A stretch of DNA of 62,832 bases, the filler included, from Stramenopiles sp. TOSAG23-6 (Eukaryota), in the NCBI GenBank assembly GCA_900128565.1. It is 35 parts of 35 records of this genome, joined end to end, with 100 filler letters (N's around TTAATTAATTAA, not from the genome) between each part and the next. Parts side by side here need not be neighbours in the genome. Positions count along the whole stretch, not along the records: positions 1 to 1,710 come from LT638676.1; 34 more parts are not named here. One strand, given 5' to 3'. The translations under genes were made by a program, and so were the position numbers. Under the pieces are notes generated by a model. It did no database searches, was not told the DNA's origin, and worked only from the letters and a program-made list of their open reading frames with translations. Shown in pieces: positions 1-62,737 of the stretch (the stretch's first letter is position 1; each line of letters starts with the position of its first letter).

Positions 1-50
1 CAAAATTTCGTACGAAAAAAAATTCGAATTTGAAAAAAAATAAAACATAC

Positions 51-1710
51 ATGCAACCTATATATAGTTTCGAGAAGAAATGAATTATTGGAGTTGCGAG
101 GAGCATATTCTACCGCCTTTCGAAAATGAGATAAACAAGATGATAGAGAAGAACCAAGTTTTCCTAAAGTTTTTCCAATCATAAAATGAATATGAGAACG
201 TCTTTCACAGTATTTAGACGATGGTTGATTATTCAAAAGTATTAGAGCTTTTTTGTATTGTTCCAAAGCCATTTTAGCAACATTGTAACAATTTCCTCCA
301 GTCAAATCTCCGGCATACTCATCAATTCTCAGAGGATTAGTTATTAAAGCCGAATTATTTGAACTTTCAAGACTTTCAAGATATCCTGATTCCTCTGCCG
401 ATTCGTTTGATTTATTAAGAGCATTTAGATGTAAATTTATAACTTTCATTGTAGTATCATACGTTTTCAAAATAGGTGACGTATTTGAACTTTGTAATCG
501 ACTATAAAGCAAATCACCNATAGTTTCGACCAATCTAGCGCACGAAATATTTCCTAATGCATCAAAAGCATTTTCAAATGTCCCAGCTTTCTCCGGATGA
601 TTAATACATTTTAATGCCATTTTGAAACAACGCATAGCACAATGCCAACTTTTTGTAGCTGTCCATGAACTATGTTGGAATTCAGAGACATCAAGCCCTT
701 CAGGAATTTCAATGTATGTATTTTTATCATCAATATATTTTGAAAATAACAATGTATTTTTTGATCCTTTCATATTCTGCAAAGATTGAAATATTTTCTC
801 CGTCGGTAGGTCTTTTATATTTACTTCATTAATGGATACCAAATACATGTATCGTGAAAAAATATTTTTTTTTTTTTGGTTCAAACAAAAATCGTTAGAT
901 ACAAAATTTTTTATGAAAAAAATAAATTTGAAATTCACGATGAAAANGTACATGCCTACTTTAATAACTTGATCAGTAATTTGTAGAGGTTCTTCACTAA
1001 ATCCACTAACTAATGCACCATAGTGACACCCTTCATTACTAGTATACGCTGGTCTAAATGCTATGCCAATTGGACCTGCATCTACAATAACCGTTACACT
1101 ATTATCTATACTATTTAATGCCAAAGGTTTTTCTGGGCAAAATTTTGAGTACATGTATTTTGGAAAAATATTTCAAAAAAAAATCTAAAAAGAATTGTTA
1201 GGTACGAAATTTCGTATGAAAAAAAANAAANTAGAAATTCGGATAAAACGTACATAATTTCACGATCTATACAGAAATGAAATATTTCTCGAGCACGGCA
1301 ACCTGCTAAATACCAAGATTTATATCTATAGGGATTATACCTTATATCAAAATGGTATAGTAATTTAAGTTCTTCCAAAATACTTAAATAATCTTGTAAA
1401 GACGTCAAATCCGAATTTTTTAGAGTAGGAAATCCTTTTTTGCTTGCAACAAGATTATATAAATCACAATGTGTTCTATATAATGACTTATTAAAACGAT
1501 CACTCGAGCAATCACTTGATGACGAATCAACAAATTCTGGAACGAATTTATATTTATACATATCATACGTATCTCTATTTGTAACAGAAGCATCAGACTC
1601 ACTAGACGTAAAATATATACTTTTCCCACTACACAACCAGTCACCTACGGGATCTTCTGTACAAATTTCGTCACTTACGGAATCATCTGTACAAATTTTC
1701 ACTGTATCAT
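51..1710 (-). CDS. CABIN1/Hir3-like TPR protein (partial; introns 847-951 and 1153-1253) with a PDZ-like insert
   Basis: The spliced translation has FDIRYNPYRYKSWYLAG, AMRCFKMAL, HIHFMIGKTLGK and LETIYRLH in the same order as the CABIN1/Hir3 motifs. Confidence 0.65.
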
Positions 1711-3518: not shown

Positions 3519-3618
3519 NNNNNNNNNNNNNNNNNNNNNNNNNNNNNNNNNNNNNNNNNNNNTTAATTAATTAANNNNNNNNNNNNNNNNNNNNNNNNNN
3601 NNNNNNNNNNNNNNNNNN

Positions 3619-16318: not shown

Positions 16319-17412
16319 GTAGATCACCCCATAGGCCGAATCCAATTGGTTTAAGTCTTTGTCAGATTGACAGTATCGATGCAAAAAATAATACTGTGAA
16401 TCTTTCTGGGATAGATCTTTTGGATGGCACACCAGTGATAGATATAAAACCATACTTGACATCTGATATAATAGAGAGTAATTTTCAAATTTCATTTTTG
16501 AATGCATTAATTTTTTTCATCAAAAATATTTTGTACCTAACGGTTTTTTTACACCAGCAAAAAAACAATATTTTTCACAATATATAGGTACGTGTCCCAG
16601 ACTGGATTAAACCACAGACATGCCAAAAAATGCTTAATGTGCATTTTTCTAAGAATGCCAAAGAGGGTATAAAGACAATATCTTCAATTTTTTCCAAATT
16701 CTATCAAAGTGAGAATAAAACGAAACAAAATTCTTCTACACATTTCAAGTTTTTCCCCTTTGAAGATGTTGCAACTGTAGAACGTAGTATTGAACAGTTG
16801 CTTCAACTAAACCCAGCAAGAGGTGTTGATCCTTTAAGCCCGAGAGCGCAAGCATGTATGTTTTAATTTTTTTTTCAATTTTGAATTTATTTTTCGTACG
16901 AAATTTTGTACCTAACAATTTTTTTTCGAAATATTTTTCCAAAATACATCTTTAGTATCAAAAGGACAAGATACAAAACAACCAAAAGAATTAATGGGAA
17001 AATCATGGCTTGGTCCATATATTATTGAGGTTGGTGGACTTTCAGTCCGATTTTGGAAGAATGTACATTTCCCCTAACCCTAACCTTAATTTCGAATTTA
17101 TTTAACTATTTATTCATGGAAATTTTTGTCCTCACGATTTTTTTTATTACATTTTTCAAATTTTTTTTTCACACAACAAATGAAGAGGATATTTTGCAAA
17201 GGACCTTATGTGATAGTTTCAATACTGAGATAGCTGTGAGTATTTCATGCAGTGCGAAAGAAAATACTAAAGAAAATACTAAAGAAAATACTAAAGAAAA
17301 GAGGAAAGAAAATACTAAAGAAAATACTAAAGAAAATACTAATGAAAATTCAGGTTCTGTATTTGTAGAAGACATACAACCCAATAGTACTCTTTTGAAA
17401 GAAATAATGTAG
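16319..17412 (+). CDS. TRMO: tRNA (adenine37-N6)-methyltransferase TrmO/TsaA, 3' part (introns 16478-16585, 16856-16949, ~17063-17181)
   Basis: RSPHRPNPIGLS, GIDLLDGTPVIDIKPY and RVPDW motifs. Confidence 0.88.
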
Positions 17413-17485
17413 ACAAATTTGATAGTGTTGTATAATTTATAAACAAATTTATTAGGGTTTAGGGTTAGGGTTAGGTATAATTACT

Positions 17486-19960: not shown

Positions 19961-21577
19961 ACCTGTGGAACAGATATTTTCAGCACACGCTCTATTACAT
20001 GTATTGTGAAAAATGTAGAAATTCGAAATTGGTCAAATAATTTGTACTCTTTTACATGTTCAATTCATGATGAAAATATACATTTCAAAAAAAAAATCTT
20101 TTTTGTTTTTTAAAAGAAAATCTCACATGAAAAAAAAATAGGGTTAGGGTTTGTACACTTCATGATGAAAACATACATGAAACACAGATATTGCAATTTG
20201 AGACGCCACCTCTGAAGATGGTATTTTTTCTTGCAACAAAGATGGATCTCTAATTATATCTGACACCACAGTAGTATTAGTTGTGAGAGCAAATAATTGA
20301 GCATACATTTCCTGTCCCGCAAGTCCAGCCACTCCAAATTGGCCATCCTTCAAAGAATCTCCAATAACGCCGTCGACATGGATTATAAAAAAATATTTAA
20401 AAAAAAACTTAAATTTGTTAGGTACAAAATTTCGTATGAAAAAAAACAATTTCGAAATTAAAAAAAATGAAAACGTACATACACTACAGATGATTTTAGA
20501 TCTGGAAGTACCCATTGTGCGGCCATGGATATAATTAGCAATGAGAAAAAAACAAGCTCAGCACAACGGCGAAGAAGCCAACCTCTTCTAATGCGTTTTG
20601 TTCTAGGATCTATATTCTGGGAAAATATTTCAAAATTTTCAAAATGTTTTGTTAAGTACAAAATTTTCTATCAAAAAAAAAAATCCAAATTGAAATGAAA
20701 ACACATACATTGTAATTCATATACTAAAGTTGGAACTGCCATAAAATAATAAAGTTCAGAAATTGATAAATTTTCAGGCCATTTGACAACTTTCCTATCT
20801 TGGCAATCAATATTTAACACATTCTTTATTTTGTTCATTTGTGGTGATTTTTTTCTCGTACCGCCTCTTTCTCCGTTAGGGTTAGGGTTAGGGATTTGAA
20901 TGTCTCTAGAATAATCTGTAGGTAAGGATTCATTATTATTAGAATCATCAGGATATTCAGATCCTTCAATAATCGGAGAAAATACAGGTGAACTCCGATC
21001 ATTTTGTTGTGTCGATGCATTCGTACCAAATTTTGTTCCTGAAAAAGTACTCTTTGACATTTTTGTGCCAGATATTTGTTTAGGGTTAGGGCTTTTAACG
21101 TCAACTGTAGTAGTTTGAGTTCGAAGCTCCCAATTCACATGAGCATAGGATATTAATTTGAAAAATGAGCACATGACACACATCATCAGCAACGCACTTT
21201 TCGCAGGGTGCGGAGCTAGAACAGTTACATAGTAGCAGGGGACGCAAAGTGATCCAGCACAATTAGTAAAATTTAACAAAAAAATTATAAACTCTGGGAG
21301 GAGATGCCTAGCAGCGATACATTCAATCAGAAGAGCTAATAGTATATTTACATTTTGGCACATGAGTAAGTTTAGCATCGGCCAATATGTAAAGAATTCA
21401 ACGCTTACAATTGGAGACTGTGGAATACCTATGACAATACCATATTTTAGGAAGTTTTCAACAACAAGACGCGAGTGTGTGATACACATAATAATTGCAA
21501 TTAAATTCATCACTCCACGGAATGAATTTTCCGGGGCCGTTGAAGACAACAAAGAAGCACGAACACGATCCGACGGT
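19961..21577 (-). CDS. DGAT1: Diacylglycerol O-acyltransferase 1 (MBOAT), partial; introns 19999-20176, 20378-20478, 20610-20708
   Basis: SLLSS, RLVVENFLKYG, KLISYAHVN, PTLVYELQYPRT and ERVLKISVP. Confidence 0.92.
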
Positions 21578-23380: not shown

Positions 23381-23480
23381 NNNNNNNNNNNNNNNNNNNN
23401 NNNNNNNNNNNNNNNNNNNNNNNNTTAATTAATTAANNNNNNNNNNNNNNNNNNNNNNNNNNNNNNNNNNNNNNNNNNNN

Positions 23481-23545
23481 TGACAATGTTGATGTCCATC
23501 GACATATATAATGAAAAAATATTTTTCATTTGAAATTGGTCAAAA

Positions 23546-23576
<31 letters not shown>

Positions 23577-24192
23577 GTTTAGGTACGAAATTTTCTATGA
23601 AAAAAAAAAAAATTAAATTTAAATTTAAATTTAAATTTAAAATTCATGATGAAACACGTACATGAGGTGATGGACATCCTACTACAGTATGAAACCATTG
23701 TAACTGCATTTTTGCCTCACATGCTGCTTCTGAAGGAACAATTTGATTTAATGTACATGCTGTTATAAAGTCTTTCTTTCCTCGAAATGTTCTCTTTATA
23801 TTTGAAGAAGTTGAACAAGTTGATTGTGTTGTATTCACCATGCCAGTCACAATATCAGTGCAATTAACTGGAGCAAGTAAAGAAGGAATTTCTTCTGGTG
23901 AGCTCAAAGGAACACCTTCAGATAAGTTAAGGTGTAAGCCAACTCTGTGTAATAAACCCTCAGACCGTGCAATTGATATAGCTTCCATTGCATATGGTGC
24001 TCCTGCCATAATCGACGTTGCTGTACAGATACCGTCTTTCATGGCCTTTATAATACCTAGGGTTCGTTCCATACTTATACCGAAATCATCAGCTGTGATG
24101 ATAACTAAAGGTTTCATCTCCGACTTATTTGTGTTCAACTGTGATACGGTTTTCATTTCTTTAGTGTCAATTGATGATCCAATAACATTCAT
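23481..24192 (-). CDS. YDJC: YdjC/ChbG carbohydrate deacetylase, 5' part
   Basis: ITADDFG, VGLHLNLSEG and the spliced HVDGHQH. Confidence 0.9.
23504..23661 (-). mobile_element. Introner copy, GT...AT (158 nt)
   Basis: Removal restores the YdjC catalytic motif SPH-VDGHQH. An identical copy is at 36104-36261. Confidence 0.85.
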
Positions 24193-27389: not shown

Positions 27390-28626
27390 TCTCATGGGGA
27401 TTTTGCAAATGCACGTAATCATCTCGACCGTTCCTTAGACATATTTTCAGGGATGCCGTCTAGTGTGGAAAGTAAATATATGGTAAATGCCGTAAAGCGA
27501 CGTATAGTTGGGGTTTGTGAAATGATAGGCGATGTAGCAGAAGGTGAAAGGTTGTTGCTTGAGATTCTTTCTTCGGAGCTCGGAAGCGAGGAAGAATATC
27601 TTATGAAACGCTGCATATCCCGCCTTTATATTCAACAAAATAGACCAAGTGAAGCTCTCAAATATCTTTCGAAAATGTCAGACGTTGAGTTAGATTCCAC
27701 TGTTGACAGGGTTAGTGCTAGAGTAGAAGATCTTATTTTACTTGGTATAGTTAATAGTATGGATTGATGAGGCAGAGAAATATTTTGATACTGCCACTAA
27801 TCTTATCAAGGACAATAAGGACAAAAATACTTTAAAAAGTTTGTTGATATTATCAAGAGTTAACCGTGGTGCAAGTCTGTGGCTAACAAATTCTGTTTGT
27901 GATAGTAACTCCAATGAAAAGATGAGTAACGAGCATCGTATAGCAATATTAGAAGAAGCGAAAAAGTGTTACGAAGATGCATGTACTTGTCTTGGTATTG
28001 AATATCCTGGTAGAGATAATATTTCTACTGATTTAGGTGGAAGTAATATTTCTACTGATTCCCGAATGGTATCTTCTTTATTAACTAGTCTAGGACATAT
28101 ATGTTACTCCATGAATTATTTAGATGAAGCAAGGTTTTATCTTGAGTCAGCATTACGTCATACATCTAATAAGAAAGAGATTGCCGAGAATAAAAAAAAT
28201 ACAGTGAATGTTTTACACGGTTATGACGATGATGTACGACTTGGCTTATTACTAACACATTTAGCTACACTTAGCCATATGGAAGAAAAAGCTGTCACGG
28301 CCGAGGGTTTATATAGAAGTGCATTGGATTATTTTGCTCGTAGTTCTTTGAATACAACAAATACAATTTCTAATTCTTCCAATACAACTGATGCCCAATT
28401 AATTCAACATCGCCAATTGTCACCAATGTTTCAATGGGCTCATGCATTCGCTCTTGATGGATATTCAAAATTATTAAACGATTGGGAAAATAGAGGTCCT
28501 GAGGGTAAGTCATACGCTGAGAAATCTGAAAGTATAATGAATCATTTACATCAAGGATCAGAAAGCCACGCGTTAATAACTCCACATGTTATGCTGAGTG
28601 GTTGGTCACCCTTTTATCAAGAGTAA
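27390..28626 (+). pseudogene. TPR-like gene with a frameshift near 27765 and an in-frame stop at 27387
   Basis: LLLGIVNSM continues as DEAEKYFDTA in another frame; TPR-like helices throughout. Confidence 0.5.
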
Positions 28627-28942: not shown

Positions 28943-30093
28943 ATGTACGAGACTCAGGAACACCTTCTTCGATTCATTTTTCAACCGACCATATATTTAG
29001 TGGGTGGAGTGATGGTCGGATTCGCTGTCATAACTCAGCCGGTGGAGATTTATTGTGGTTTATTAATGAGGCTCATGTATGTTTTATTTTTTTTCAAATT
29101 CGAATTGTTTTTTCATACGAAATTTTGTACCTAACGATATTTTTTTGAAATATTTTTCCAAAATACATAAAGTTTCTAGAAATGGCGCAGTCAGTGCCTT
29201 GAAGCTTAGCAACAACAGCAAATTTCTATTATCGGGAGGTGTATGTTTTATATGAATTTCTAATTTAATTTTTTTTTCATACGAGATTTCGTACCTAACA
29301 AATTTTAGTTTTTTTTTTTGAAATATTTTTCACAATACGTGAGAGTGGTGCTGTTAGGGTTTGGGACGTGAGAACTAAGGAACTAGTATCTCATTTGAAA
29401 GAGCACAAGTCCAAAGTATCACAAATATGTCTCTATGACGATGACGTCCACTGTTTAACATGTAGTCAAGACCGTTCATTCCTCTGTTGGGATCTTCGGG
29501 AAGAAAAGCGGATTGCAAGTCATGTTCAACGCACTGGAGGTATCAATGCGGTAGCTCTTTCCCGAGACCAAACATGTATGTTTTATTTTTTTTTTACAAA
29601 AAAATCGAATTTATTTTTCATACGAAATTTTGTACCTAACAATTTTTTTTAGATTTTTTTTGAAATATTGTTCCAAAATACACATATAGTTACTTGTGGC
29701 AAGGAAAGAATGATTACATTCTGGGATTTGAGAGATCCTACACCTGCTAAAACTATATCGCCAGCCCATGATGGTGAAGGGACATGTATAGCCATGCTCC
29801 ACAACAGTGATCATATTTTTGCTACTGGCGGAAGTGACCAAATTGTAAAACTTTGGGATGCAAGGACTGGAAAGGTTATAACGGAAGGGTATGTTTTCAT
29901 CATGAATTTCAAATTTAGTTTTTTTTTTTCATACGAAATTTTGTACCTAACGAATTTTTTTTGAAATATTTTTTTACAATACGGATTAGGGCATTCGGGG
30001 TGCATAAATGACGTACAATTTTCACCAGACGATAAGCAACTACTCTCTGTTGGGGATGATGGAAATATATTTATCTGGAACTTTTATTTGTAA
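28943..30093 (+). CDS. WD40 protein, CFAP52/WDR16-like, 3' part (four complete introns)
   Basis: SGWSDGRIR, LKEHK, ATGGSDQIVKLWD and GHSGCINDVQFSPDDKQLLSVGDDGNIFIW. Confidence 0.8.
29077..29168 (+). mobile_element. Introner copy, GT...AT (92 nt)
   Basis: GCT CAT|GTATGT...CCTAAC...AAAATACAT|AAA GTT gives EAH-KVSRNG in the WD40 gene. There is no AG after the branch point. Confidence 0.88.
29241..29340 (+). mobile_element. Introner copy, GT...GT (100 nt)
   Basis: GGA GGT|GTATGT...CAATACGT|GAG AGT restores the WD40 motif LLSGG-ESGAVRVWD. Confidence 0.88.
29889..29984 (+). mobile_element. Introner copy, GT...GG (96 nt)
   Basis: GAA GG|GTATGT...CAATACGG|A TTA GGG CAT restores EGLGHSGCINDVQFSPD. 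Confidence 0.86.
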
Positions 30094-30144
30094 TTTTGCA
30101 AAAAATAAAAAAAATTAGACTTTGGAAAAAATACAAACTTCAAC

Positions 30145-30586
30145 AAATCTTTATTGATTGTTTTCAAGTTAATTTTTTGCTTTTAAATCTTTATTGATTG
30201 TTTTCAAGTTAATTTTTTGCTTTTAAATCTTTATTGATTGTTTTCAAGTTAATTTTTTGCTTTTAAATCTTTATTGATTGTTTTCAAGTTAATTTTTTGC
30301 TTTTAAATCTTTATTGATTGTTTTCAAGTTAATTTTTTGCTTTTAAATCTTTATTGATTGTTTTCAAGTTAATTTTTTGCTTTTAAATCTTTATTGATTG
30401 TTTTCAAGTTAATTTTTTGCTTTTAAATCTTTATTGATTGTTTTCAAGTTAATTTTTTGCTTTTAAATCTTTATTGATTGTTTTCAAGTTAATTTTTTGC
30501 TTTTAAATCTTTATTGATTGTTTTCAAGTTAATTTTTTGCTTTTAAATCTTTATTGATTGTTTTCAAGTTAATTTTTTGCTTTTAA
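30145..30586. repeat. 40-bp tandem satellite AAATCTTTATTGATTGTTTTCAAGTTAATTTTTTGCTTTT, about 11 copies
   Basis: Near-perfect head-to-tail units with no spacers. Confidence 0.95.
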
Positions 30587-30686
30587 NNNNNNNNNNNNNN
30601 NNNNNNNNNNNNNNNNNNNNNNNNNNNNNNTTAATTAATTAANNNNNNNNNNNNNNNNNNNNNNNNNNNNNNNNNNNNNNNNNNNN

Positions 30687-32896: not shown

Positions 32897-34183
32897 ATGT
32901 TAAACTTCGTAAACTTCAACAGGAAATCCCCGAAACGTCCATTAGGTCCGCCCAGTTTAAATCGTNNNNNNNNNNNNNNNNNNNNNNNNNNNNNNNGGTA
33001 AAGACCCAAAGAAGTCCAGGGAAGTTGAAGGTGCGGTTGTTGCGGGTGCGGGTGGTGCGGGTCCAGCACCAGATAATGAATCCCCTTCATCTATTAGGGA
33101 TATCAATAGAGGGATCCCATTGTCTCCCGCAATTGCTAACAACGTATCATTTCGGACGGCTTCGCGGTTTGCGGAAGAAGATGTATGTTTATATTATAAA
33201 TTTCAGTTTTCATATGTCGAACACTGGTTTTGTACCTAACAAAAAAAAAGTTGAAATATTTTCTCACAATATATGAAACTAACCCTAAACGTAAATTGTT
33301 TTCACCGTTTGATGCCAACTCAGATGATTGGTCATCAATTAAAATGGATTTGGATGCATCACGCACCATTTCGACCATTTCGACGGGANNNNNNNNNNNN
33401 NNNNNNNNNNNNNNNNNNNNNNNNNNNNNNNNNNNNNNNNNNNNNNNNNNNNNNNNNNNNNNNNNNNNNNNNNNNNNNNNNNNNNNNNNNNNNNNNNNNN
33501 NNNNNNNNNNNNNNNNNNNNNNNNNNNNNNNNNNNNNNNNNNNNNNNNNNNNNNNNNNNNNNNNNNNNNNNNNNNNNNNNNNNNNNNNNNNNNNNNNNNN
33601 NNNNNNNNNNNNNNNNNNNNNNNNNNNNNNNNNATTTCGACCATTTCGGGAAAAATTGAAGACGTACGTGTTCATATTCTGGAATGTTTTTTTTTTCATA
33701 CGAAAATTTGTACCTAACGGAAAAAATGAAATATTTTTTCACAATATATGATGGTGGGGAATATTTTCACGATTATGTTATTTTTAATGGAAGAAAATAC
33801 ATTGGTGAAGGAGTGGCCGTTAATGGTGAAAAATGGGTGAGCTTGGAAAGTTTTGAGAAAATTTTTTCAAATTCTGGAATAAGNNNNNNNNNNNNNNNNN
33901 NNNNNNNNNNNNNNNNNNNNNNNNNNNNNNNNNATTTCGACCATTTCGGGAAAAATTGAAGACGTACGTGTTCATATTCTGGAATGTTTTTTTTTTCATA
34001 CGAAAATTTGTACCTAACGGAAAAAATGAAATATTTTTTCACAATATATGATGGTGGGGAATATTTTCACGATTATGTTATTTTTAATGGAAGAAAATAC
34101 ATTGGTGAAGGAGTGGCCGTTAATGGTGAAAAATGGGTGAGCTTGGAAAGTTTTGAGAAAATTTTTTCAAATTCTGGAATAAG
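32897..34183 (+). CDS. Unknown low-complexity protein (introns 33183-33274 and 33664-33749)
   Basis: Frames join across the family introns; large N gaps limit certainty. Confidence 0.4.
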
Positions 34184-35949: not shown

Positions 35950-36080
35950 GTATGTTTTATTGTTTTTCAATTTCGATTTTNNNNNNNNNNNNNNNNNNNN
36001 NNNNNNNNNNNNNNNNNNNNNNNNTTAATTAATTAANNNNNNNNNNNNNNNNNNNNNNNNNNNNNNNNNNNNNNNNNNNN

Positions 36081-36145
36081 TGACAATGTTGATGTCCATC
36101 GACATATATAATGAAAAAATATTTTTCATTTGAAATTGGTCAAAA

Positions 36146-36176
<31 letters not shown>

Positions 36177-36792
36177 GTTTAGGTACGAAATTTTCTATGA
36201 AAAAAAAAAAAATTAAATTTAAATTTAAATTTAAATTTAAAATTCATGATGAAACACGTACATGAGGTGATGGACATCCTACTACAGTATGAAACCATTG
36301 TAACTGCATTTTTGCCTCACATGCTGCTTCTGAAGGAACAATTTGATTTAATGTACATGCTGTTATAAAGTCTTTCTTTCCTCGAAATGTTCTCTTTATA
36401 TTTGAAGAAGTTGAACAAGTTGATTGTGTTGTATTCACCATGCCAGTCACAATATCAGTGCAATTAACTGGAGCAAGTAAAGAAGGAATTTCTTCTGGTG
36501 AGCTCAAAGGAACACCTTCAGATAAGTTAAGGTGTAAGCCAACTCTGTGTAATAAACCCTCAGACCGTGCAATTGATATAGCTTCCATTGCATATGGTGC
36601 TCCTGCCATAATCGACGTTGCTGTACAGATACCGTCTTTCATGGCCTTTATAATACCTAGGGTTCGTTCCATACTTATACCGAAATCATCAGCTGTGATG
36701 ATAACTAAAGGTTTCATCTCCGACTTATTTGTGTTCAACTGTGATACGGTTTTCATTTCTTTAGTGTCAATTGATGATCCAATAACATTCAT
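36081..36792 (-). CDS. YDJC: YdjC deacetylase, second assembly copy or allele
   Basis: Same protein as 23481-24192. Confidence 0.88.
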
Positions 36793-37986: not shown

Positions 37987-39507
37987 GCCTATGCATTTTT
38001 TTCAAAAGAAGATGATCCCGATGGATCAAAATCAGCTGCGCGTACAAAAGAATTTTGTGAATCTAATATTGATCAAATTCTTTCACGTTCATCTCGCGTT
38101 GTCACTCATGAAGGAAATGCTGTACGTTCAAAGCGTTAATTTCACTTTAAAAATTAATTTTTTTTTTTCTTTTTAAAAATTATTTTTTTTTTTTTTTTTT
38201 TTTTAAAAATTTAAAAATTTTTTTTTTTTTTTTTTTTGAAAAATAATTTCGTATATACCTAACAAAATATTTAAAAAAAAATTTAAAAATATTTTTCCAA
38301 AATAAATGTTGGTGGTGGATTCTCAAAAGCAACATTTGTTAGTGATGCTGCAGGTAGTGAAGAAACTGTTGATATAAATGACCCAGATTTTTGGTCAAAA
38401 GTTGTTGGTTTACCTGAAGTTGAAGAAAATCAATATTTAGATCCTTCAGAACGTCGACGAGGTCGAAAACGAATTGATTATTCTGAAAAAGGTCAAGAAG
38501 TTGTACGTTTTTTAATTTCTAATGTTTGATCAAAAATATTTTTTTCATAGTAAATTTTGTACCTAACAAAAAAAATTTTAAAAATTTAAAATTTTTTTTT
38601 TTAAAAATTTGAAATATTTTCAATAATATATGATATTTATTCTGGTTCTGGTTCGGATTCAAGCGATGATAATGATAATCATAATCATCATACTATTGAT
38701 GAAGATATAGACGATCGATTTTGTCCAAATGAAGAAAGAAATAAAAATCATAAAAATTTGGTACAAAAAACAAGAACAAAAAAATCAAATAAAAAAAAAA
38801 CGATACCGTTGTTATCAATTTCTGATCCTTGGTCCGAAGACGAATTAATGAGAGGTTTAAAAATGATTGGATTTGTTCAATGTGGTAGTGGAGAATCTCT
38901 TGCCTCTTGGCGTAATTGTAAAAATTTTATATCTAGAGGTCGAGGTAGAACAAATCGTTCCTATGATGTTTGTTTTCAAAATTGAATTTTTTTTTTTTTT
39001 TTGGTTTTCATACGAAATTTTGTACCTAAACAAAAAAAATTTTTTTTTTTTTCAAAACATTTCGTATCTAACATTTTTTTTTTTACCAAAACATTTTCGT
39101 ACAATACATTCTATTGCATTATTATATTGTGCTGTTGTACGTTCATGTGCTGTTGCTGTCTTGGCGCATGTATGTTTTATTTAATTTTTTACAAAAAAAT
39201 CGAATTTTTTTTTTTTTTTTGGTTTTCGTACGAAATTTTGTACGTAACAAATTTTCAAAATTTTTTTTTGAAATATTTTTCCAAAATACATGAAAGAGAT
39301 TTAGCATTATATGATGCAGCACAAAAAACAACATCTAATGTGAATTCTATATTACAACAAAATCAAAATAATCCTGAAAATCCTGAAAATCAACAAAATA
39401 ATAGAATTTCTTCTAGTGTTCATTTCAAAATTAATGAATTTTACAATACGATTGATGAAGTTGATCGTAGTCAAGATATTCAAAAATTAATGACTATGAC
39501 GTCACAT
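37987..39507 (+). CDS. CHD6-9-like chromatin remodeller, region after the helicase domain (four complete introns)
   Basis: AYAFF...EFCESNIDQILSR, FSKATF and VDINDPDFWSK. Confidence 0.8.
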
Positions 39508-41469: not shown

Positions 41470-43102
41470 CTGTATGGGTTGTCACTGAGTTCATGGATGC
41501 TGGTTCAATAAAAGATTTGATGGAGCCTAAACCTATAGAAGAAAGATTTGTAAAAATCATAATGCGAGAGCTTCTCCGAGGTCTTTGTTATCTTCATGCT
41601 GACCGCAAACTTCATCGAGATGTCAAGGCTTCCAATATTCTTGTATCCTCTGAAGGTGAAATTCGTCTTTCTGATTTTGGTGTGGCAACACAATTTGCAT
41701 TTGGTAGTCGCTCGCGAGCAACTTTTGCACGTTTTCATTTTTTTTCAAATTCGATTTTTTTTTTGGTTTCGTACCACCTGAAATTATTGATGGTAAAGCG
41801 TATGATGAAAAAGCTGATATATGGTCACTTGGTATATCAGCTATAGAAATGGCGACTGGATTTCCACCTCATGCATCTGCTCATGCAAAACGAGTTCTCT
41901 ATTTAGTATCAAAACAACCTGCCCCGTCATTAGATGGACGTTTTCATGATGAATTTCAAATTTTTTTTTTTTGATTTTTTTTATACGAAATTCCGTACCT
42001 AACGATTTTTTTTCAAAAATATTTTTGTACAAAACATGGCCCTTTTTCACGATCTTTTAAAGATTTCGTCAGCTGTTGTTTGTCCAAAGATCCTACAAAG
42101 AGATCAACTGCTGCTGAACTATTGACGCATCGTTTCTTACAATCAGCAGAACCGAATAGTGTATTGTTTCATCATGAATTTTAAATTTATTTTTTTTTTG
42201 TATGAAAATTTTTTTTTTTTTTTTTTTTTTTTTATAAAATTTTTTTTTTTTTTTTTTTTTTTGAGTGTTTAACAAATTTCGAATTTGACATATATTTTTG
42301 CAATACTTGTTCTTCGATTATTAGTTTCCAGGTACCAGAAATATAAACGGAATTCTTCTAGTGAATTGAATTCAGCGCTTGGCAATACGTTAAAAAATAA
42401 AAATAAAATCTCAAGTTATGACAAGGATGAAAGTAATATGACAAAAAATATAGGAAGGGATGTATGTTTTATTTTTTTTCAATTTTGAATTTTTTTTTCG
42501 TACGAAATTTTGTACCTAACATTTTTTTTTAGATCTTTTTTGAAATATTTTTCCAAAATACATGCCGAACGATACAGTGGAGTAGAAGATGTAAACTGGA
42601 ATTTTACTCTTGTACGGTTTCATCCATTTAAAGTTTCGAATTTATATTTTTGTAAAAATTTTTTTTTTTTTAAGTTTCGAATTTATTTTTTTGTAAAAAA
42701 ATTTTTTTTTTTTAAGTTTCGAATTTATTTTTTTGTAAGTTTTTTTTTTTTTTTGTACCTCACGATTTTTGTTTTACAAAAGAAAAAATATTTTTTCACA
42801 ATACATGTAGCTCCGAGAGAGATAAAAAGTTCTTCTAGCGACGTAGATGATCAAAGCTTCAATGATTCAACCTCCCAACTACGAAAGTGTCAGGCTGTCT
42901 GTTTTATTTTTTTCAATTTCGAAACTATTTTTTTTTTTTTGGTTTTCGTACGAAATTTTGTATCTAACAAAAAAACATTTTAAATATTTTTTCACGATAA
43001 ATGTCCTCAGTGATATAGCGAACCTCAACAAAGCACTTGCTGTACAAGCAGATACTAGAAATGAAGCAAAAAAAATGAATGCATCAAAACATCGACGTAT
43101 CC
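41470..43102 (+). CDS. STE20/GCK-III-like Ser/Thr kinase, partial
   Basis: HRDVKASNIL, DFGVATQ, PEII, YDEKADIWSLGISAIEMATG and FKDFVSCCL. Confidence 0.88.
41936..42037 (+). mobile_element. Introner copy, GG...AT (102 nt)
   Basis: TTA GAT|GGACGT...AAAACAT|GGC CCT restores the kinase segment APSLD-GPFSRSFKDFV. Confidence 0.8.
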
Positions 43103-45111: not shown

Positions 45112-46667
45112 GTCTGTGATCCACCCGTCATAGAGAAAATAGACAATATTGCTAACACTAACTCTAACCAGGGATTGTCAAGTACAAAATTTGGTATGAA
45201 AAATACACCAGCTCTATCGGATTACACTAAAGTTACTTTTATTCCAGATGTAAGTTTTATTTTTTTTTTTACAAAAAAATCGAATGTTTTTTCGTACGAA
45301 ATTTTGTACCTAAAAAATTTAAGTTTTTTTTTTGAAATATTTTTCCAAAATACATCTATCAAGATTTGGAGTAAACAAATTTCCAAATGGAATGTTAGAC
45401 TTGTTGAAAAAAAGAGTTTGGGATATTGCTGGTTGTACACCAAATATTTCTGTTTATTTGAATGGTGTTGCTGTTGGTATTCCACAAAAATCTGGTATTG
45501 GATTTAGTAATTTCGGAGAGTACGCATCACTATATGATAGAAAATTGAATTCTTCATCAAGTGAAGAAAAGAAAATTGAAAAATCTGCATCATTGGTATT
45601 TGCAAAACTCAACAAAAATTGGGAAATTGCGGTAACTGCATCTTCATCATCATCATTACCATCAAGTCATTTTTCTCATGTGAGTTTTCATGATGAATTT
45701 CAAATTTTTTTTTTCGTACGAAATTTTGTACCTAACCAATTTCGAATTTAATTTTTTTTACAATACATGTGAGTTTTGTCAATAAAATGGCATCATTACG
45801 TGGAGGTACTCATGTCACAGCAATCGCCGATCTCGTATGTAAACCAATTGCTGATGCGATTAATGTATGTTTTTTTTTTTTTTTACAAAAAAATCGAATT
45901 GTTTTTTCGTACGAAATTTCGTACCTAACGTTTTTTTTTTTGAAATATTTTTCCAAAATACATAAAAAACATACAGATTTACGAATTACTCCGGGTGCAG
46001 TTCGACAAAATTTGAAATTATTTGTAAATGCAAAAGTAGCAAATCCATCATTCGATAGTCAATCAAAAGAAATGCTTACAACAAAACTTTCAGCATTAAA
46101 TATCCCAAAACTGTCACCAAAAGTTGTATGGTTTATTTTTTCAATTTCGAACTTTTTTTTTTTTTCATTTTTTTTGTCTATTTTTTTTTCAAATTTTTGT
46201 ATAATTTTTTTCAAATTTTTTTTTCATACGAAATTTTGTACCTAACAAATTGTACAAAAAAAAATATTTTTTCACAATATATGTTTCCAATATTATCTCA
46301 AAATCGAATATTGTGGAAACAACTATTTTTGCAGCAAAATCTCGTCAGAAGGCAATGCTATACAAAAAAACAAAAGTTTCAAAAAATCGAATGTTAACCA
46401 TACCTAAATTATCCGATGCTAATCTTGCAGGGGGTCGTCGTAGTAGTGAATGTACACTGATTTTGACGGAAGGTGATTCAGCAAAAGCACGTTTTCATTT
46501 CAATGTTTTGTCAAAAAAAATTTTTTTGGTAGAAAATTTCGTACCTAACATTTTTTTTTTTTTGAAATATTTTTTCACAATACTTGCGCTTGCCGTCTCT
46601 GGTTTATCAGTCATAGGTAGGGATACGTATGGTGTATTTCCTCTAAAGGGAAAATTATTAAATGTAC
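45112..46667 (+). CDS. TOP2: DNA topoisomerase II, ATPase-transducer-TOPRIM fragment (five complete introns)
   Basis: FIPDLSRF, SFVN...GGTHV, NPSFDSQSKE, KLSDAN, TEGDSAKALA and FPLKGKLLNV. Confidence 0.95.
46487..46585 (+). mobile_element. Introner copy, GC...TT (99 nt)
   Basis: GCA AAA|GCACGT...CAATACTT|GCG CTT restores the TOP2 TOPRIM motif EGDSAK-ALAVSGL. Confidence 0.85.
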
Positions 46668-55797: not shown

Positions 55798-57315
55798 TCG
55801 AACCACTTCGACAGGCCTTTCAGGGGAGTAATGCATCTAAGCTTCCAGTGGCGTTTAAGGTAGTTGGTATGGGAAAAGATGTAGTAGAACGTGAGAAGCA
55901 ATTTCAAACAGCTGCAAATTCTATCAAAACTTCGGGTGAGGGAAAACGCGTCGCAGTTTTAACTAAGGAACTAAAGTACCTTACTATTGGTACTCATGCG
56001 ACAGAATGGATGGATTCTCTCTCAAAGCTAGATGGTGTTGAGCAGGTAAATGCTAGTGGTGGATTCGCTTTAATGTTTTGTCAAAAAGATTCGACAGAAT
56101 TAAGTTGCATAAAAAAAGCCGCCTTCATTACTGGCCGGTTAATGAAGTTTGCTCTTGTACCAGAAATGGAAACTGTTGTTGATGAAGGTAAAAAAGTTAC
56201 ACATGAGGCTCTTGCTGAAAAAACAGAAGCTCTACTTCAAAACCCTGAAAAAATTCGCGCTAAATACGACGTCGACGATGTTGAAGCTACAGTTCAACCT
56301 ATCATTCAAAGTGGTGGTCGATACAGTGTCAAAGCTTCCGCTCAAAGCTCTGAAGAAACAATGAAATATGACATCATTCTTGCTACATTAGGAGTTCGCT
56401 ACAATAATTATTGTGCTTCACAAACTCGCACATATTTTATTGATCCGACAAAAGAACAAAAAAGTGTATATTCGATTATTTTAGAGACATATCAATCCTG
56501 TCTTGGGGCTCTTCAACCTGGCAAACCTCTAAGTGCTGTACGTGATGCAGCGTTGAATACATTAAAAAACTCTTCCCGTCCTGATTTAGCTAATTATTTA
56601 AGTAAGACGTGTACGTTTCAATTATATTGTTCAAATGTATTTGTTTATCAAAAAAAATGCAAATTATAGTGACATATCTAACAATTTTTCATTTTTTTAA
56701 ATTTTCTTTTACATTATATGTGGACATTCTATGGGTCTTGAAATGCGAGAATCAATATCATTGAACAGTAAAAATCATTTACAGGCTCGTTCAGGTATGG
56801 CTTTTGATTTGCGTCTTTCCTTAGAAAATATTCCACACGAGAGTAAAACAAGTGACGATGGTGCACGTTCTTTATCTTCGTATACAATTCTAATCGCTGA
56901 TACAATCATTCTTGAGGATAGTATTAATGATAAGACGGGAACATTTGCTATCCCTGTATCAAAAGCATCAAAATTATGGAAAAGTGTAGCTTATTTTCTA
57001 GATGGTGAAGATGATGATGATAGTGAAGACGAATCTGCAAAATCAAAACCTGAGAAAGGAAAATCAAAAATGGTCAATGGTGCAATACCTTCTATCTCAT
57101 CCGTGCGTGCGAGAACACGTGGTCAGGAATACGCAAATAGCGCGTCTGCATTAGCAAATAAAGCGGAAGCAAATAAAAGAGATGAAAGACAACAAGCCAT
57201 CATGCGCGCAAAAATGGAAGCAGCAAATAAAAAACGAGATGAAGCATTTGTCGATACAAAGTTTAAAGATGGTGCTGCCCGTGCTTTTACTCAAAAAATC
57301 AAAGCATATGATAAT
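55798..57315 (+). CDS. SPT16: FACT complex subunit Spt16, partial (intron 56611-56719)
   Basis: PIIQSGGRY, LGVRYNNYC, RTYFIDPT, MGLEMRE and IADT. Confidence 0.9.
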
Positions 57316-57592: not shown

Positions 57593-59265
57593 ATCCACCG
57601 ATCCTCGCCATCTTCAGTTTTCTAGTCATAATATTCGATGTTATACTCATGAGCAGAATTCTCAACATGATTCGATTGGTGTTCGTTCAGCAGGTAATTC
57701 TCCTGTTTCTACTCAATTGGGTCATGTACGTTTTTCTTTCAATTTTTTTTCTACATTTTTGTTTTCGTACGAAATTTTGTACCTAACAATCTTTCAAATT
57801 TTACAAAAAAAAAATATTTTCCAAAAATTACATCGTCCTTTGATTCGTTCAGCAGGTAATTCTCCTGTTTCTACTCAATTGGGTCATCGACGTTTTTCTT
57901 TTTCTCATGAATTCGAAAGTACATCCAACGTCAACAATGATAATAATATCGATGATACTTTTAAAACTCCACGTAGAAGTCCACCTGGATTTAATTGTTC
58001 TATTTCACCTAATTCTAAATCTTGTGGACACCCAGGTCGTATTTTTTTTTTTTTCAATTTTTATTTTATTTAATTTGTTTTTCGTACGAAATTATGTACC
58101 TAACAAATTTTTTTAGATTTTTTTTTGAAATATTTTTTCACAATATATGTTGTGTTTGTGATAGTTTCTGTATCAATAATGGTATGAAACAAAAAAATGG
58201 AAATGAATTATTTGGAGATGTGTATGTTTTTCATCATGAATTTTAAATTGTTTTTTAATACGAAATTTTGTACCTAACAAAAAAAACCAAAACTTTTTTT
58301 TTTTATGTTTTTCATCATGAATTTTAAATTTTATTTTTTTTCATACGAAATTTCGTATCTAAANTTTTTTTTTTNGAAATATGTTTTCTTTTCACAATAT
58401 ATGAATTATTCACCTTTTCCGAAATATCGTAGTTTATCCGATGAGATATCTGTTGATTCAAATGTAAAAACTGTGAAAAAAACCTGTACAAAGTTAAAAT
58501 CTTGTGCAGTGCCGTGGGTACCTTCGTTACACATGAAGCAGCGAGAAGAAAAAAGTCGTTGGACCGTAGCTGACAAATCCATAGATAGGTGTATGTTTTA
58601 TTTGTTTTTTGTATGAATTTTTTTTTTTGGTTTCGTACGAAATTTTGTACCTAACAAAATTTTTTTTTTTTTGTTTTTTGTATGAATTTTTTTTTTGGTT
58701 TCGTACGAAATTTTGTACCTAACAAATTTTTTTTTTTTTTTTGAAATATTTTTCCAAAATACATCAGGATCGTACAATATTTTCAAAGATTCGTGTCTTT
58801 TACATGATGTACGTTTTCATTTCATTTCAATTTTTTTTTGAAATATTTTTTTTTTTTGGTTTTCATACGAAATTTTGTACCTAACATTTTTTTTGAAATA
58901 TTTTTTCATAATTCATGTTACTTCTGTTGAAGAATTGTCTAATTCGAATAATTCGTCTTTATTTTCTAAAGTATTTGAGAATAGTTTCCCCATGGAAAAA
59001 TTTTCTACGAAACAATTTTTTAATTATAATGATACTATTCTTAGTCAATTGAATATGGAATCCAAAAAATCCAAAAAATCACATGGACCGATAGGTGCCG
59101 AAAGAGGTGCAATTGTACTGGCTAATGTATGTTTTTTTTTTTTTTTTTTTTTTTACCGAAAAAAAAAAAAATCGATTTTTTTTTTTTTTTTTTTTTTCGT
59201 ACGAAATTTTGTACCTAAAAAATTTTTTTTTTCAAATATTTTTCCAAAACACGTAGGATTGGTCA
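57593..59265 (+). CDS. Unknown intron-dense gene (at least six family introns)
   Basis: Short exons separated by family introns; no recognised domain. Confidence 0.5.
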
Positions 59266-61199: not shown

Positions 61200-62737
61200 G
61201 TGGGATGGATTATTAAAGTGCAACTTTCATTGATGGCTCTATTAACGTGTGCTATATTATCAGTTATTATAGGAAGTTTTTTTCCAAATTTGAATGGAAC
61301 ACATCCTGGATTTGTAGGCTGGAGTGGTGAAGTAGTGAAGCAGATACCTGAATGGGAAGAAGGCACAATTGTACATGTATGTTTTATTTTTTTTTTGTTT
61401 TCGAAAAAAAAAAAATCGAATATATTTTTTTCAAAAATTTTTGTACCTAACAAATTTAGGTTTTTTTTTTAAATATTTTTCCAGAATACATCCTGCAGTC
61501 GAATATTCTCGTAATAATTTCATTGCAAATCTCTGGCCCGAATTTACATCTTATAAACCTGATCAAAATGGTGTTGTTAAGAAATATGATTTTTTCACTC
61601 TGCTGTCGATATTTTTCCCAGCTGTTACTGGGATTACTGCGGGCTGCAACATATCTGGATTGTATGTTTTATCTTTTTTTTTACAAAAAAATCGATTTTT
61701 TTTTCGTACGAAATTTTGTACCTAACAAATTTAAGTTTTTTTTTTTTTGAAATATTTTTCCAAAATATATATATTGCTACATTTTCTTCTGCACTTGCGT
61801 CTATTGTAGGAGCTCCACAGTTACTCTGTGCTGTTGCAAAAGATGATTTGATACCACAACTTCAATACTTTGCTACGACCCATGTTCGCCAGGGGAAAAC
61901 ATTCAAACGTTGTCCTTTCGTCGATGGTTTAACACCAATATTTTGTCAATTATGGAGACAGTATCTTTTGGAAACTGTCACCGATGCACCTCAGAATGAC
62001 AAGGAAGCATTACACGTCTTGCGTAATATTTGGGTTATGCCAGAATACGAAGTAAGAGCTCGCGCACGAACAGCTGGAGTTGATGTCCCACCTCCAGGAC
62101 AACTTGATGGCCCTGAAGGTTCAGATAGAGCTCGTCGAGCTTTAGCTCAGCGGGTGTACACGGCGATACTTAATCAAGCTTCAAATAGTCATGAAGTTAA
62201 ATTTGCTGAATTTTTGTCGTATTTAAGTCGAGAATTATCGGCTATCGACGTTGGAGCAACAGGACAAGTATCTGTTGCAAACCTAATTCACGTATTGTCC
62301 GATGTTTCCGATTACGAATCAGAGTCAATTCGTGAAATAGCAAAAGCTGTAAACAGTTCTGATTTGATACGTTTATTATTGAATAGGAGAGTCGAAGATC
62401 TCGATGTTGATTTAACTACGCTTAACTACGGAATAGTTCATAAAAGTGGTGATCCAGTTCGAGCATACTTCTTTGCGTATTTAGTAGCTGCTTGCGGTAT
62501 TTGTATTGGTGATGTTAATGCCGTTGCGCCACTCATATCAATAATCTTCATGATGACGTATAGTCTTATTAATTACTCGTGCTTCAGACAGGATAAATCT
62601 GCAAATGCTGGTTGGCGTCCAAGTTTTAAATATTTTAATGCTGAACTGTCCATGTTTGGTGCGATGGTATGTATAGTGGTGATGTTTATCTTTTCAAGAG
62701 CAATAGCATTATGTTGCTTAATAGGTATGAGTGCAAT
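61200..62737 (+). CDS. SLC12 cation-chloride cotransporter, partial, with a large loop insertion
   Basis: FFPAVTGITAGCNISG, ATFSSALASIVGAP, NAVAPLIS and GWRPSFKYFN. Confidence 0.9.

Follow-up and report, generated by a model that had tools for sequence, protein, structure and literature searches.

The window analysed here, by which we mean the whole stretch of 62,832 bases from Stramenopiles sp. TOSAG23-6 (assembly GCA_900128565.1), is a chain of 35 contigs of 1,683-1,710 bases each, arranged longest first and separated by spacers that consist of 44 N, TTAATTAATTAA and a further 44 N (1711-1810, 3519-3618 and so on). As it is made of joined contigs and is not one locus, genes that adjoin in the window are not neighbours in the genome. 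The DNA is AT-rich (25-40% G+C) and contains ordinary eukaryotic genes, including those for topoisomerase II, NSF, dymeclin/Hid1, PTPLA, WD40 proteins, kinases and U-box proteins. Our subject is a family of short repeated introns in these contigs, copies of which start with GT and end mostly with AT in place of AG. Two copies lie close together at 847-1253 on the minus strand, where the sequence-only reading had placed two introns; both were confirmed as family members. The interval runs from the 3' end of one copy (951->847) to the 5' end of the next (1253->1153), and its features, with lengths in nucleotides (nt), are as follows.

847-951, minus strand: intron copy 1, 105 nt (nhmmer E 1.3e-10; flanking frames of 73 and 281 codons, in frame once it is removed)
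943-951, minus strand: 5' splice-site motif of copy 1, GTACNTTTT (from the sequence)
894-912, minus strand: core box of copy 1, ending in the branch-site-like TATCTAAC (motif match)
847-858, minus strand: 3' tail of copy 1, ...CACGATACAT, with the end AT and not AG (from the sequence)
952-1152, minus strand: exon between the two copies, 201 nt (open frame continuous with the neighbouring exons after copy removal)
1153-1253, minus strand: intron copy 2, 101 nt, GTACGTTTT...core 1215->1197...CCAAAATACAT (nhmmer E 5.6e-15)
844-849, unstranded: flank repeat TACATG as read on the plus strand, with its partner at 949-954 (from the sequence)
1149-1154, unstranded: flank repeat GTACAT as read on the plus strand, with its partner at 1250-1255 (from the sequence)
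1-50, minus strand: 5' portion of another copy (the third) in this gene, truncated by the window start (50->1; nhmmer, model positions 1-52)

The length of copy 2 is not a multiple of three, and only its removal brings the flanking frames of 152 and 383 codons into register. Copy 1, at 105 nt, is open in the longest frame, and we therefore infer its removal from family membership alone. A homologue search with the gene that carries both copies returned none for the middle exon and one weak match far from the junctions, so that the two junctions are placed by reading frames only.

A motif search for the family came first; an nhmmer profile was built from 34 clean copies and used at a cut-off of E<1e-3. 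The profile returned 75 matches in the window, amounting to 6,255 of its 58,498 non-N bases (10.7%), which bears out the earlier assignment of these introns to a high-copy repeated family of the introner kind. At least one match is present in 21 of the 35 contigs, and the assembly was probably broken by the repeats, since 21 of the 70 contig ends fall in or beside a copy. The copies are 86-184 nt in size, mostly 90-130 nt, and have a median pairwise identity of 77% (561 pairs), the best pairs reaching 93-95% between unrelated genes. Their common plan comprises a GTAYGTTTT start, an A/T-rich arm that occurs in two variants, a core, T runs and a terminal motif. The core, TTTCGTACGAAATTTTGTACCTAAC, contains the perfect palindrome TTCGTACGAA and ends in a branch-site-like CTAAC; this palindromic core runs into the branch-site-like TACCTAAC and a T-rich tract comes after it. 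The terminal motif is AAAATACAT or CACAATAYAT, the end of the common plan reading GAAATATTTTTCCAAAATACAT or TTTTCACAATAYAT. Internal tandem duplications are found in some copies, for example a 68-nt unit at 58599/58667. When RNA folds were computed for eight copies the ends paired in the minimum-energy structure in five, and a 6-bp core hairpin was formed in some.

Orientation is strongly biased: relative to the flanking frames, 49 of the 75 matches are sense, one is antisense and 25 are unclear. The antisense match is listed here.

45160-45207, minus strand: antisense core-like fragment (nhmmer E 1e-4, model positions 30-66), the only antisense match

This fragment belongs to a topoisomerase II exon and falls where the protein P0124 of a relative lacks some 20 residues; it may represent an antisense insertion surviving as coding sequence. 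A partial copy on the plus strand is found in a kinase gene at 41727-41774, where only the 5' half is present (GCACGTTTTC...GGTTTCGTAC), without branch box or tail; it adjoins sequence reading GFVPPEII, and the frames differ on its two sides.

To examine the ends we set the boundaries of 47 complete copies, taking the G that opens the GTAYGT-like motif as the first base and the second position past the ATAC-like motif as the last. Contigs or parts of contigs that duplicate one another exactly (23381-23680 = 35981-36280 and 33664-33749 = 33964-34049) were entered once in the statistics. The first two bases are GT in 44 copies, GC in two and GG in one, and the last two are AT in 40, AG in two, GT in two and AC, GG and TT in one each. 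Nearly all known spliceosomal introns end in AG, and the yeast-type U2 intron consensus is GTATGT ... TACTAAC ... YAG. The 5' site (G at +5 in 42/47 and T at +6 in 46/47) and the branch box of the family are near to this consensus, the sequence placing a CTAAC-like box 30-52 nt from the intron end, with T runs after it, in 37 of the 47 copies. Unlike yeast-type introns, however, the copies end in YAT and not YAG, and inner AGs are unused. Judged as U2-type introns they possess the extended GT/GC start, the branch motif and the pyrimidine tract and, save for two copies, lack the 3' AG. An AG between the branch box and the 3' end is passed over in 17 of the 47 copies; taking the first of these as acceptor leads to a stop within 50 codons in 13 of the 17, which argues that the 3' site is not set as the first AG after the branch point. 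The sequence-only reading had proposed relaxed acceptor rules. While the 3' ends do break the AG rule, the acceptor is changed rather than relaxed, with AT in 85% of copies. A further intron at 56611-56719 (plus strand), in an M24 peptidase gene, was missed by the profile and by eye has the same plan, GTACGTTTC...ATCTAAC...ATTATAT|G; on this account the AT end may be the rule for all introns of the genome, beyond the recognisable family.

Unambiguous frames flank 30 of the 47 copies, and in 28 of these the frames match after removal, compared with one third expected by chance. The length is not a multiple of three in 15 of the 28 in-frame copies and an in-frame stop is present in nine, so read-through is possible for only four. 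Independent placement of the boundaries was obtained from the topoisomerase II contig (45059-46752), one exon of which is 77% identical to the full-length protein P0124 of the relative. Its introns were compared with this protein by tblastn alignment.

45250-45355, plus strand: topoisomerase II intron, 106 nt, GTAAGT...ACAT, junction PD|LSRFG (frames, compared with P0124)
45680-45768, plus strand: topoisomerase II intron, 89 nt, inside a 12-nt repeat at 45677-45688/45766-45777 (frames, alignment)
45865-45963, plus strand: topoisomerase II intron, 99 nt (exact 33-residue gap relative to P0124)
46126-46282, plus strand: topoisomerase II intron, 157 nt, GTATGG...ATAT (frames, tblastn alignment)
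46487-46585, plus strand: topoisomerase II intron, 99 nt, GCACGT...ACTT, which fixes the boundary position (exact 33-residue gap)

The alignment with P0124 shows gaps of exactly 33 residues at 45865-45963 and 46487-46585. Removal of the latter gives the junction GDSAK|ALAVSG, where relatives read GDSAKALAMSG (P0124) and GDSAKTLAVAG (P0125), and the junctions PD|LSRFG and SH|VSFVN likewise agree with P0124. Frame and homology thus indicate that the copies are probably excised exactly, as introns. The public gene model for this contig, P0123 (45059-46752), translates intron sequence in two places and at one junction relies on a displaced GT...AG pair, losing residues that the relative has; the gene models of the assembly are probably wrong at many junctions. 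A chimera of single-cell amplification or assembly was ruled out as the origin of the copies, as the insertions are in frame and the family occurs in runs of other studies.

Word matches to the window DNA came from seawater metagenomes and metatranscriptomes, and also from small runs of a single organism. Comparison of four public runs with the topoisomerase II contig yielded 7,966 matching contigs in a DNA run and 1,404 and 1,047 in two RNA runs; these match the intron parts, and the topoisomerase II exons are almost without cover. An exact-pattern scan of metagenome contigs found a further copy with the same junctions at a single locus, in contig L001, which also carries a CCCTAA...TTAGGG inverted pair; the same scan of viral contigs found no copy. 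In DNA run X3 (31 contigs, in three rows) and RNA run X7 (two contigs) an intron tail is joined to the head of the next intron. These joints, at 45111-45113/45248, omit a 135-nt exon and are weak, their sides being shorter than 31 nt; they could stem from tandem copies, from circle junctions or from other loci whose exons are tiny. The joints between intron copies are repeat artefacts or other loci.

The exon flanks of the copies strongly favour AT|G(T). Of the 47 upstream exons 31 end in AT, with A at -2 in 33 and T at -1 in 41; among the downstream exons 28 begin with G and 13 with GT, in line with the earlier remark that they often begin in this way. The third base of the exon is not drawn to the A of the intron, GTA being present in two of the 13. 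The dinucleotides at the exon end and the intron end are identical in 30/47 copies, where pairing the 5' and 3' junctions of different copies at random gives an expectation of 26.7 (one-sided p=0.033). The two copies with matching ends other than AT are given below.

29241-29340, plus strand: GT closes both the upstream exon and the intron (among the 47 bounded copies)
29889-29984, plus strand: GG closes both the upstream exon and the intron (among the 47 bounded copies)

The upstream exon does not end in AT in 16 copies, yet the intron ends in AT all the same in 11 of them. The terminal AT therefore behaves as part of the element or of the splice signal and not as a copy of the target, contrary to the earlier proposal that a target-site duplication supplies the acceptor. 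The AT of the exon behaves as a target or context preference.

Longer repeats are a different matter. When the match to the left and right is summed, copy-specific repeats over both junctions average 3.0 nt per copy as against 2.5 nt in permuted pairings (p=5e-5). The excess is driven by a minority of copies, with repeats of 12 nt (45677/45766), 8-9 nt (6546/6645, copy 6554), 6 nt at each of the copies 951->847 and 1253->1153, and 5 nt at 61377. The sequence-only reading had reported the repeats of the two copies at 847-1253, which are indeed present at 6 nt each (TACATG and GTACAT on the plus strand), as is the 12-nt repeat it had noted at 45677-45688 and 45766-45777. Flank identity is greater than chance pairing would give for these longer repeats; the excess in dinucleotides is small. 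At the copy with the 12-nt repeat (45680-45768) the 5' site is GTGAGTTTT, the start of the conserved downstream exon (VSF), and not the GTAYGTTTT of the family. Since the donor of this copy is exon sequence, part of the target has truly been duplicated here and now serves as donor. The variable repeat length would fit microhomology-guided integration better than a transposase with a fixed stagger.

We consider that the window contains an abundant introner family which brings its own signals, is excised as U2-type introns at an AU acceptor and has spread by mobility into AT|G(T) sites, and we assign this reading a probability of about 0.6. Each copy carries a yeast-like GTAYGTTTT, a TTCGTACGAA box able to form a small hairpin, TACCTAAC, a T tract and the terminal motif. 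Excision would be the work of a U2-type spliceosome that in this lineage takes AU as acceptor and, less frequently, AG, GU, GG, UU or AC, the 3' site being set by the ...AAUAY-NN context. The family may multiply as mobile DNA or via an intron-derived intermediate, inserting into AT|G(T) sites in such a way that a short, variable stretch of the target is repeated at both junctions, usually 2-4 nt and sometimes 6-12 nt. Copies in the wrong orientation would be lost because they are unspliceable. That the elements are DNA transposons is unproven, given inverted ends of 4 nt, a variable repeat length and 49 sense copies to one antisense, and target-site duplication, inverted ends and a transposase are likewise unproven for the family as a whole.

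Several observations weigh against this interpretation. The claim that the last two bases of the intron copy those of the exon stands as a count (the 30/47 given above), but it reflects mostly two separate AT consensuses: among the 19 copies in which at least one side is not AT, the dinucleotides match in only two and differ in 17. The inverted ends noted earlier do appear in the consensus, as GTAT...ATAC, but they amount to just 4 complementary nt (6 with the AT flanks) and do not co-vary, position -6 still being A in the 15 copies with a GTAC start. None of the folds of the eight copies is more stable than shuffled sequence (z -1.4 to +0.6). As the sequence-only reading had stated, the window appears to hold no transposase: of the 117 stop-to-stop frames of at least 90 residues, 115 were scanned without a match to any transposase or reverse-transcriptase family, and the other two are duplicates of scanned frames. 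With the boundaries set as above, two of the 30 copies with unambiguous frames miss the frame by one base (38968-39109 and 40178-40065). We know of no precedent for an AU acceptor in introns with a normal GU start. Finally, no contig of the three RNA runs joins two topoisomerase II exons, exon cover being next to nil, and contigs from these runs carry unspliced intron-exon junctions, such as a contig of run X7 (record 21) in which exon sequence is followed by the first 23 nt of the intron at 46126. That the copies are spliced from RNA is consequently argued from signals, orientation, reading frames and homology. The unspliced copies in the RNA runs could be precursor messenger RNA, DNA carried into the RNA libraries, or the product of inefficient removal.

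The same flank statistics raise the possibility that the family is real and that the identity of its flanks is not target-site duplication at all, an AT|G exon context and a 3' YAT consensus acting as separate signals while the copies spread without a staggered cut. A possible route would be reverse splicing of excised introns into transcripts at junction-like sites, followed by copying back into DNA. The 17 differing copies among the 19 informative ones, the AT end kept in 11 of 16 introns behind non-AT exons, the modest 30 matches against 26.7, the excess of sense copies (49 to one), the absence of a fixed repeat length and inverted ends that do not co-vary would all be accommodated in this way. 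The copy-specific repeats, however, exceed permuted pairings (p=5e-5), and the 12-nt repeat has exchanged GTAYGTTTT for the exon sequence GTGAGTTTT, which reverse splicing of an intact intron cannot yield; the antisense core fragment within an exon also speaks against it, and tandem duplications inside copies point to events at the DNA level. We regard this alternative as unlikely, though it is to be taken seriously. Much less can be said for drawing the boundaries two bases further to the left, so that the copies become AT...AC introns (ATGTATGT...ATAC), a class within the reach of known spliceosomes, and no novel rule for the acceptor is called for. Where both dinucleotides are AT (28/47) the messenger RNA is the same either way and reading frames cannot discriminate, but at 46487-46585 the shift gives GDSAI where P0124 and P0125 have GDSAK, and the unshifted boundary gives GDSAK|ALAVSG. 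With the shift, moreover, a perfect GTAYGT at +3 would go unused and the 5' dinucleotide would vary (AT, TT, GT, GG and others). In U12 introns the branch box typically lies 10-26 nt from the 3' end, and a distance of 30-52 nt in 37 of 47 copies is greater than this; the copies do not look like U12-type introns, as they start with GTAYGT and not with an ATATCC-like sequence and the branch box is usually at least 30 nt from the end. We consider it very improbable that the boundaries should be moved in this way.

It is equally hard to credit that the copies are cut from DNA, in the manner of the internal eliminated sequences of ciliates, and not from RNA. Such elimination would explain why they are short and rich in AT, with precise boundaries and short terminal repeats, why they interrupt genes, and why the RNA runs contain no exon-joining contig. 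Against this, the copies have a full set of spliceosomal-type signals (GTAYGT, TACCTAAC and a T tract), are almost exclusively in sense orientation, are plentiful in contigs from RNA libraries, one of them poly-A selected, and are bounded by AT|GT and AT|G and not by TA. The copies might also be ordinary old introns, alike only because the genome demands long and strict splicing signals, and the diverged intron at 56611-56719, which the profile missed and which shares the plan GTACGT...CTAAC...ATTATAT|G, could be read in this sense. Whole-length identities of 93-95% between unrelated genes, however, together with shared internal boxes that no splicing signal needs, breaks in the assembly at copies and the thousands of contigs in other samples that match intron parts, make this explanation highly implausible.

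An introner family with an AT acceptor, as preferred here, has partial counterparts in several systems. The introners of Micromonas and Aureococcus are short non-autonomous DNA transposons turned introns (PMC11282704), and the present family resembles them in consisting of hundreds to thousands of near-identical short introns at unrelated positions, which are noncoding, have junction repeats and are co-oriented with the genes (PMC11282704). Those introners have canonical GT-AG ends, a duplication of fixed length (3 nt in Micromonas) and clear inverted ends (PMC11282704), whereas here AT ends 40 of the 47 copies, repeats range from 0 to 12 nt and the inverted ends measure 4 nt. The introner elements of Amoebophrya A25 and A120 are similar in that they come from a marine protist and are repeated introns outside the GT-AG rule, with short direct repeats over their boundaries and no nearby transposase (PMC7789003). 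They have inverted repeats of 8-20 nt that form a hairpin and show no preferred terminal dinucleotides (PMC7789003); in the present family, by contrast, GT and AT are strongly preferred, a branch box is found, terminal pairing is limited to 4 bp and no fold is significant. Non-AG 3' ends (AG-AC and AG-AT) occur genome-wide in the tunicate Fritillaria borealis, where the introns are thought to derive from miniature transposons and are processed by U2-type machinery in modified form, its U2AF paralogues being divergent (PMC11282704, PMC13326754). The non-AG 3' end is common to both, but the 5' end is also non-canonical in Fritillaria, as those sources describe it, and is a textbook GTAYGT here. 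The nonconventional and 'intermediate' introns of euglenids share non-canonical borders, duplication-like junction repeats and pairable ends with our family (PMC11282704). Intermediate introns keep the GT start (PMC11282704). Euglenid introns depend on a defined pairing between +4..+6 and -8..-6 and have no pyrimidine tract; the copies described here differ in having a branch box and a T tract, with only 4-bp GUAU/AUAC pairing that does not co-vary.

Taken on its sequence, then, the family is introner-like and fits the working definition of introners, the GT start combined with a mostly AT end being what differs. No description of GT...AT introners in stramenopiles was found in the literature searched, and term searches in the main text of papers on uncultured marine stramenopile genomes turned up no remark on unusual introns. 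A recent introner survey dropped mainly non-canonical families unless they were confirmed by RNA alignments in an annotated genome (PMC12130899), and a family like the present one would be hidden by such a rule.

The host looks most like a stramenopile by its proteins and would be an AT-rich marine protist with the intron family in its nuclear genes; the D2 part of NSF, for example, is about 41% identical to proteins of diatoms and other stramenopiles. An Rfam scan of the window gave no match, and hence no small nuclear RNA to inspect. Short interstitial telomere-like repeats (TTAGGG x2-3, on either strand) are present as ten matches where 0.11 are expected, at positions that include 17072-17089, 17459-17476, 20876-20893 and 21080-21091, and one of them directly follows the 5' site in a family-like intron (about 17066-17183). 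A tandem array of some 15 mostly identical copies of a 40-nt unit occupies 30065-30666. At 27740-27770 (plus strand) two long frames of a TPR gene overlap with a change of frame and no intron-like sequence between them, probably as the result of an assembly indel.

Lineages that break the AG rule, namely Fritillaria, Amoebophrya and the euglenids, are the main windows on the limits of the spliceosome and on introns made by transposons. A normal 5' site and branch site combined with an AT acceptor, if true, isolates the 3' step. Whether the change lies in U2AF, in Prp8 or Slu7, or in how the first and last intron bases pair would then be testable. The errors in P0123 imply that protein sets derived from standard splice rules are likely to be wrong at many junctions in assemblies of this type. 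The family will be of real interest if RNA data confirm the acceptor. A bolder proposal, which we offer tentatively and hold to be possible rather than probable, is that the major spliceosome of this lineage has switched its usual 3' dinucleotide from AG to AU while keeping the 5' and branch sites, and that the switch is tied to an invasive introner whose insertion between AT flanks makes the acceptor. If this is true, most introns of a genome follow a splicing code in which a mobile element has altered a single letter.

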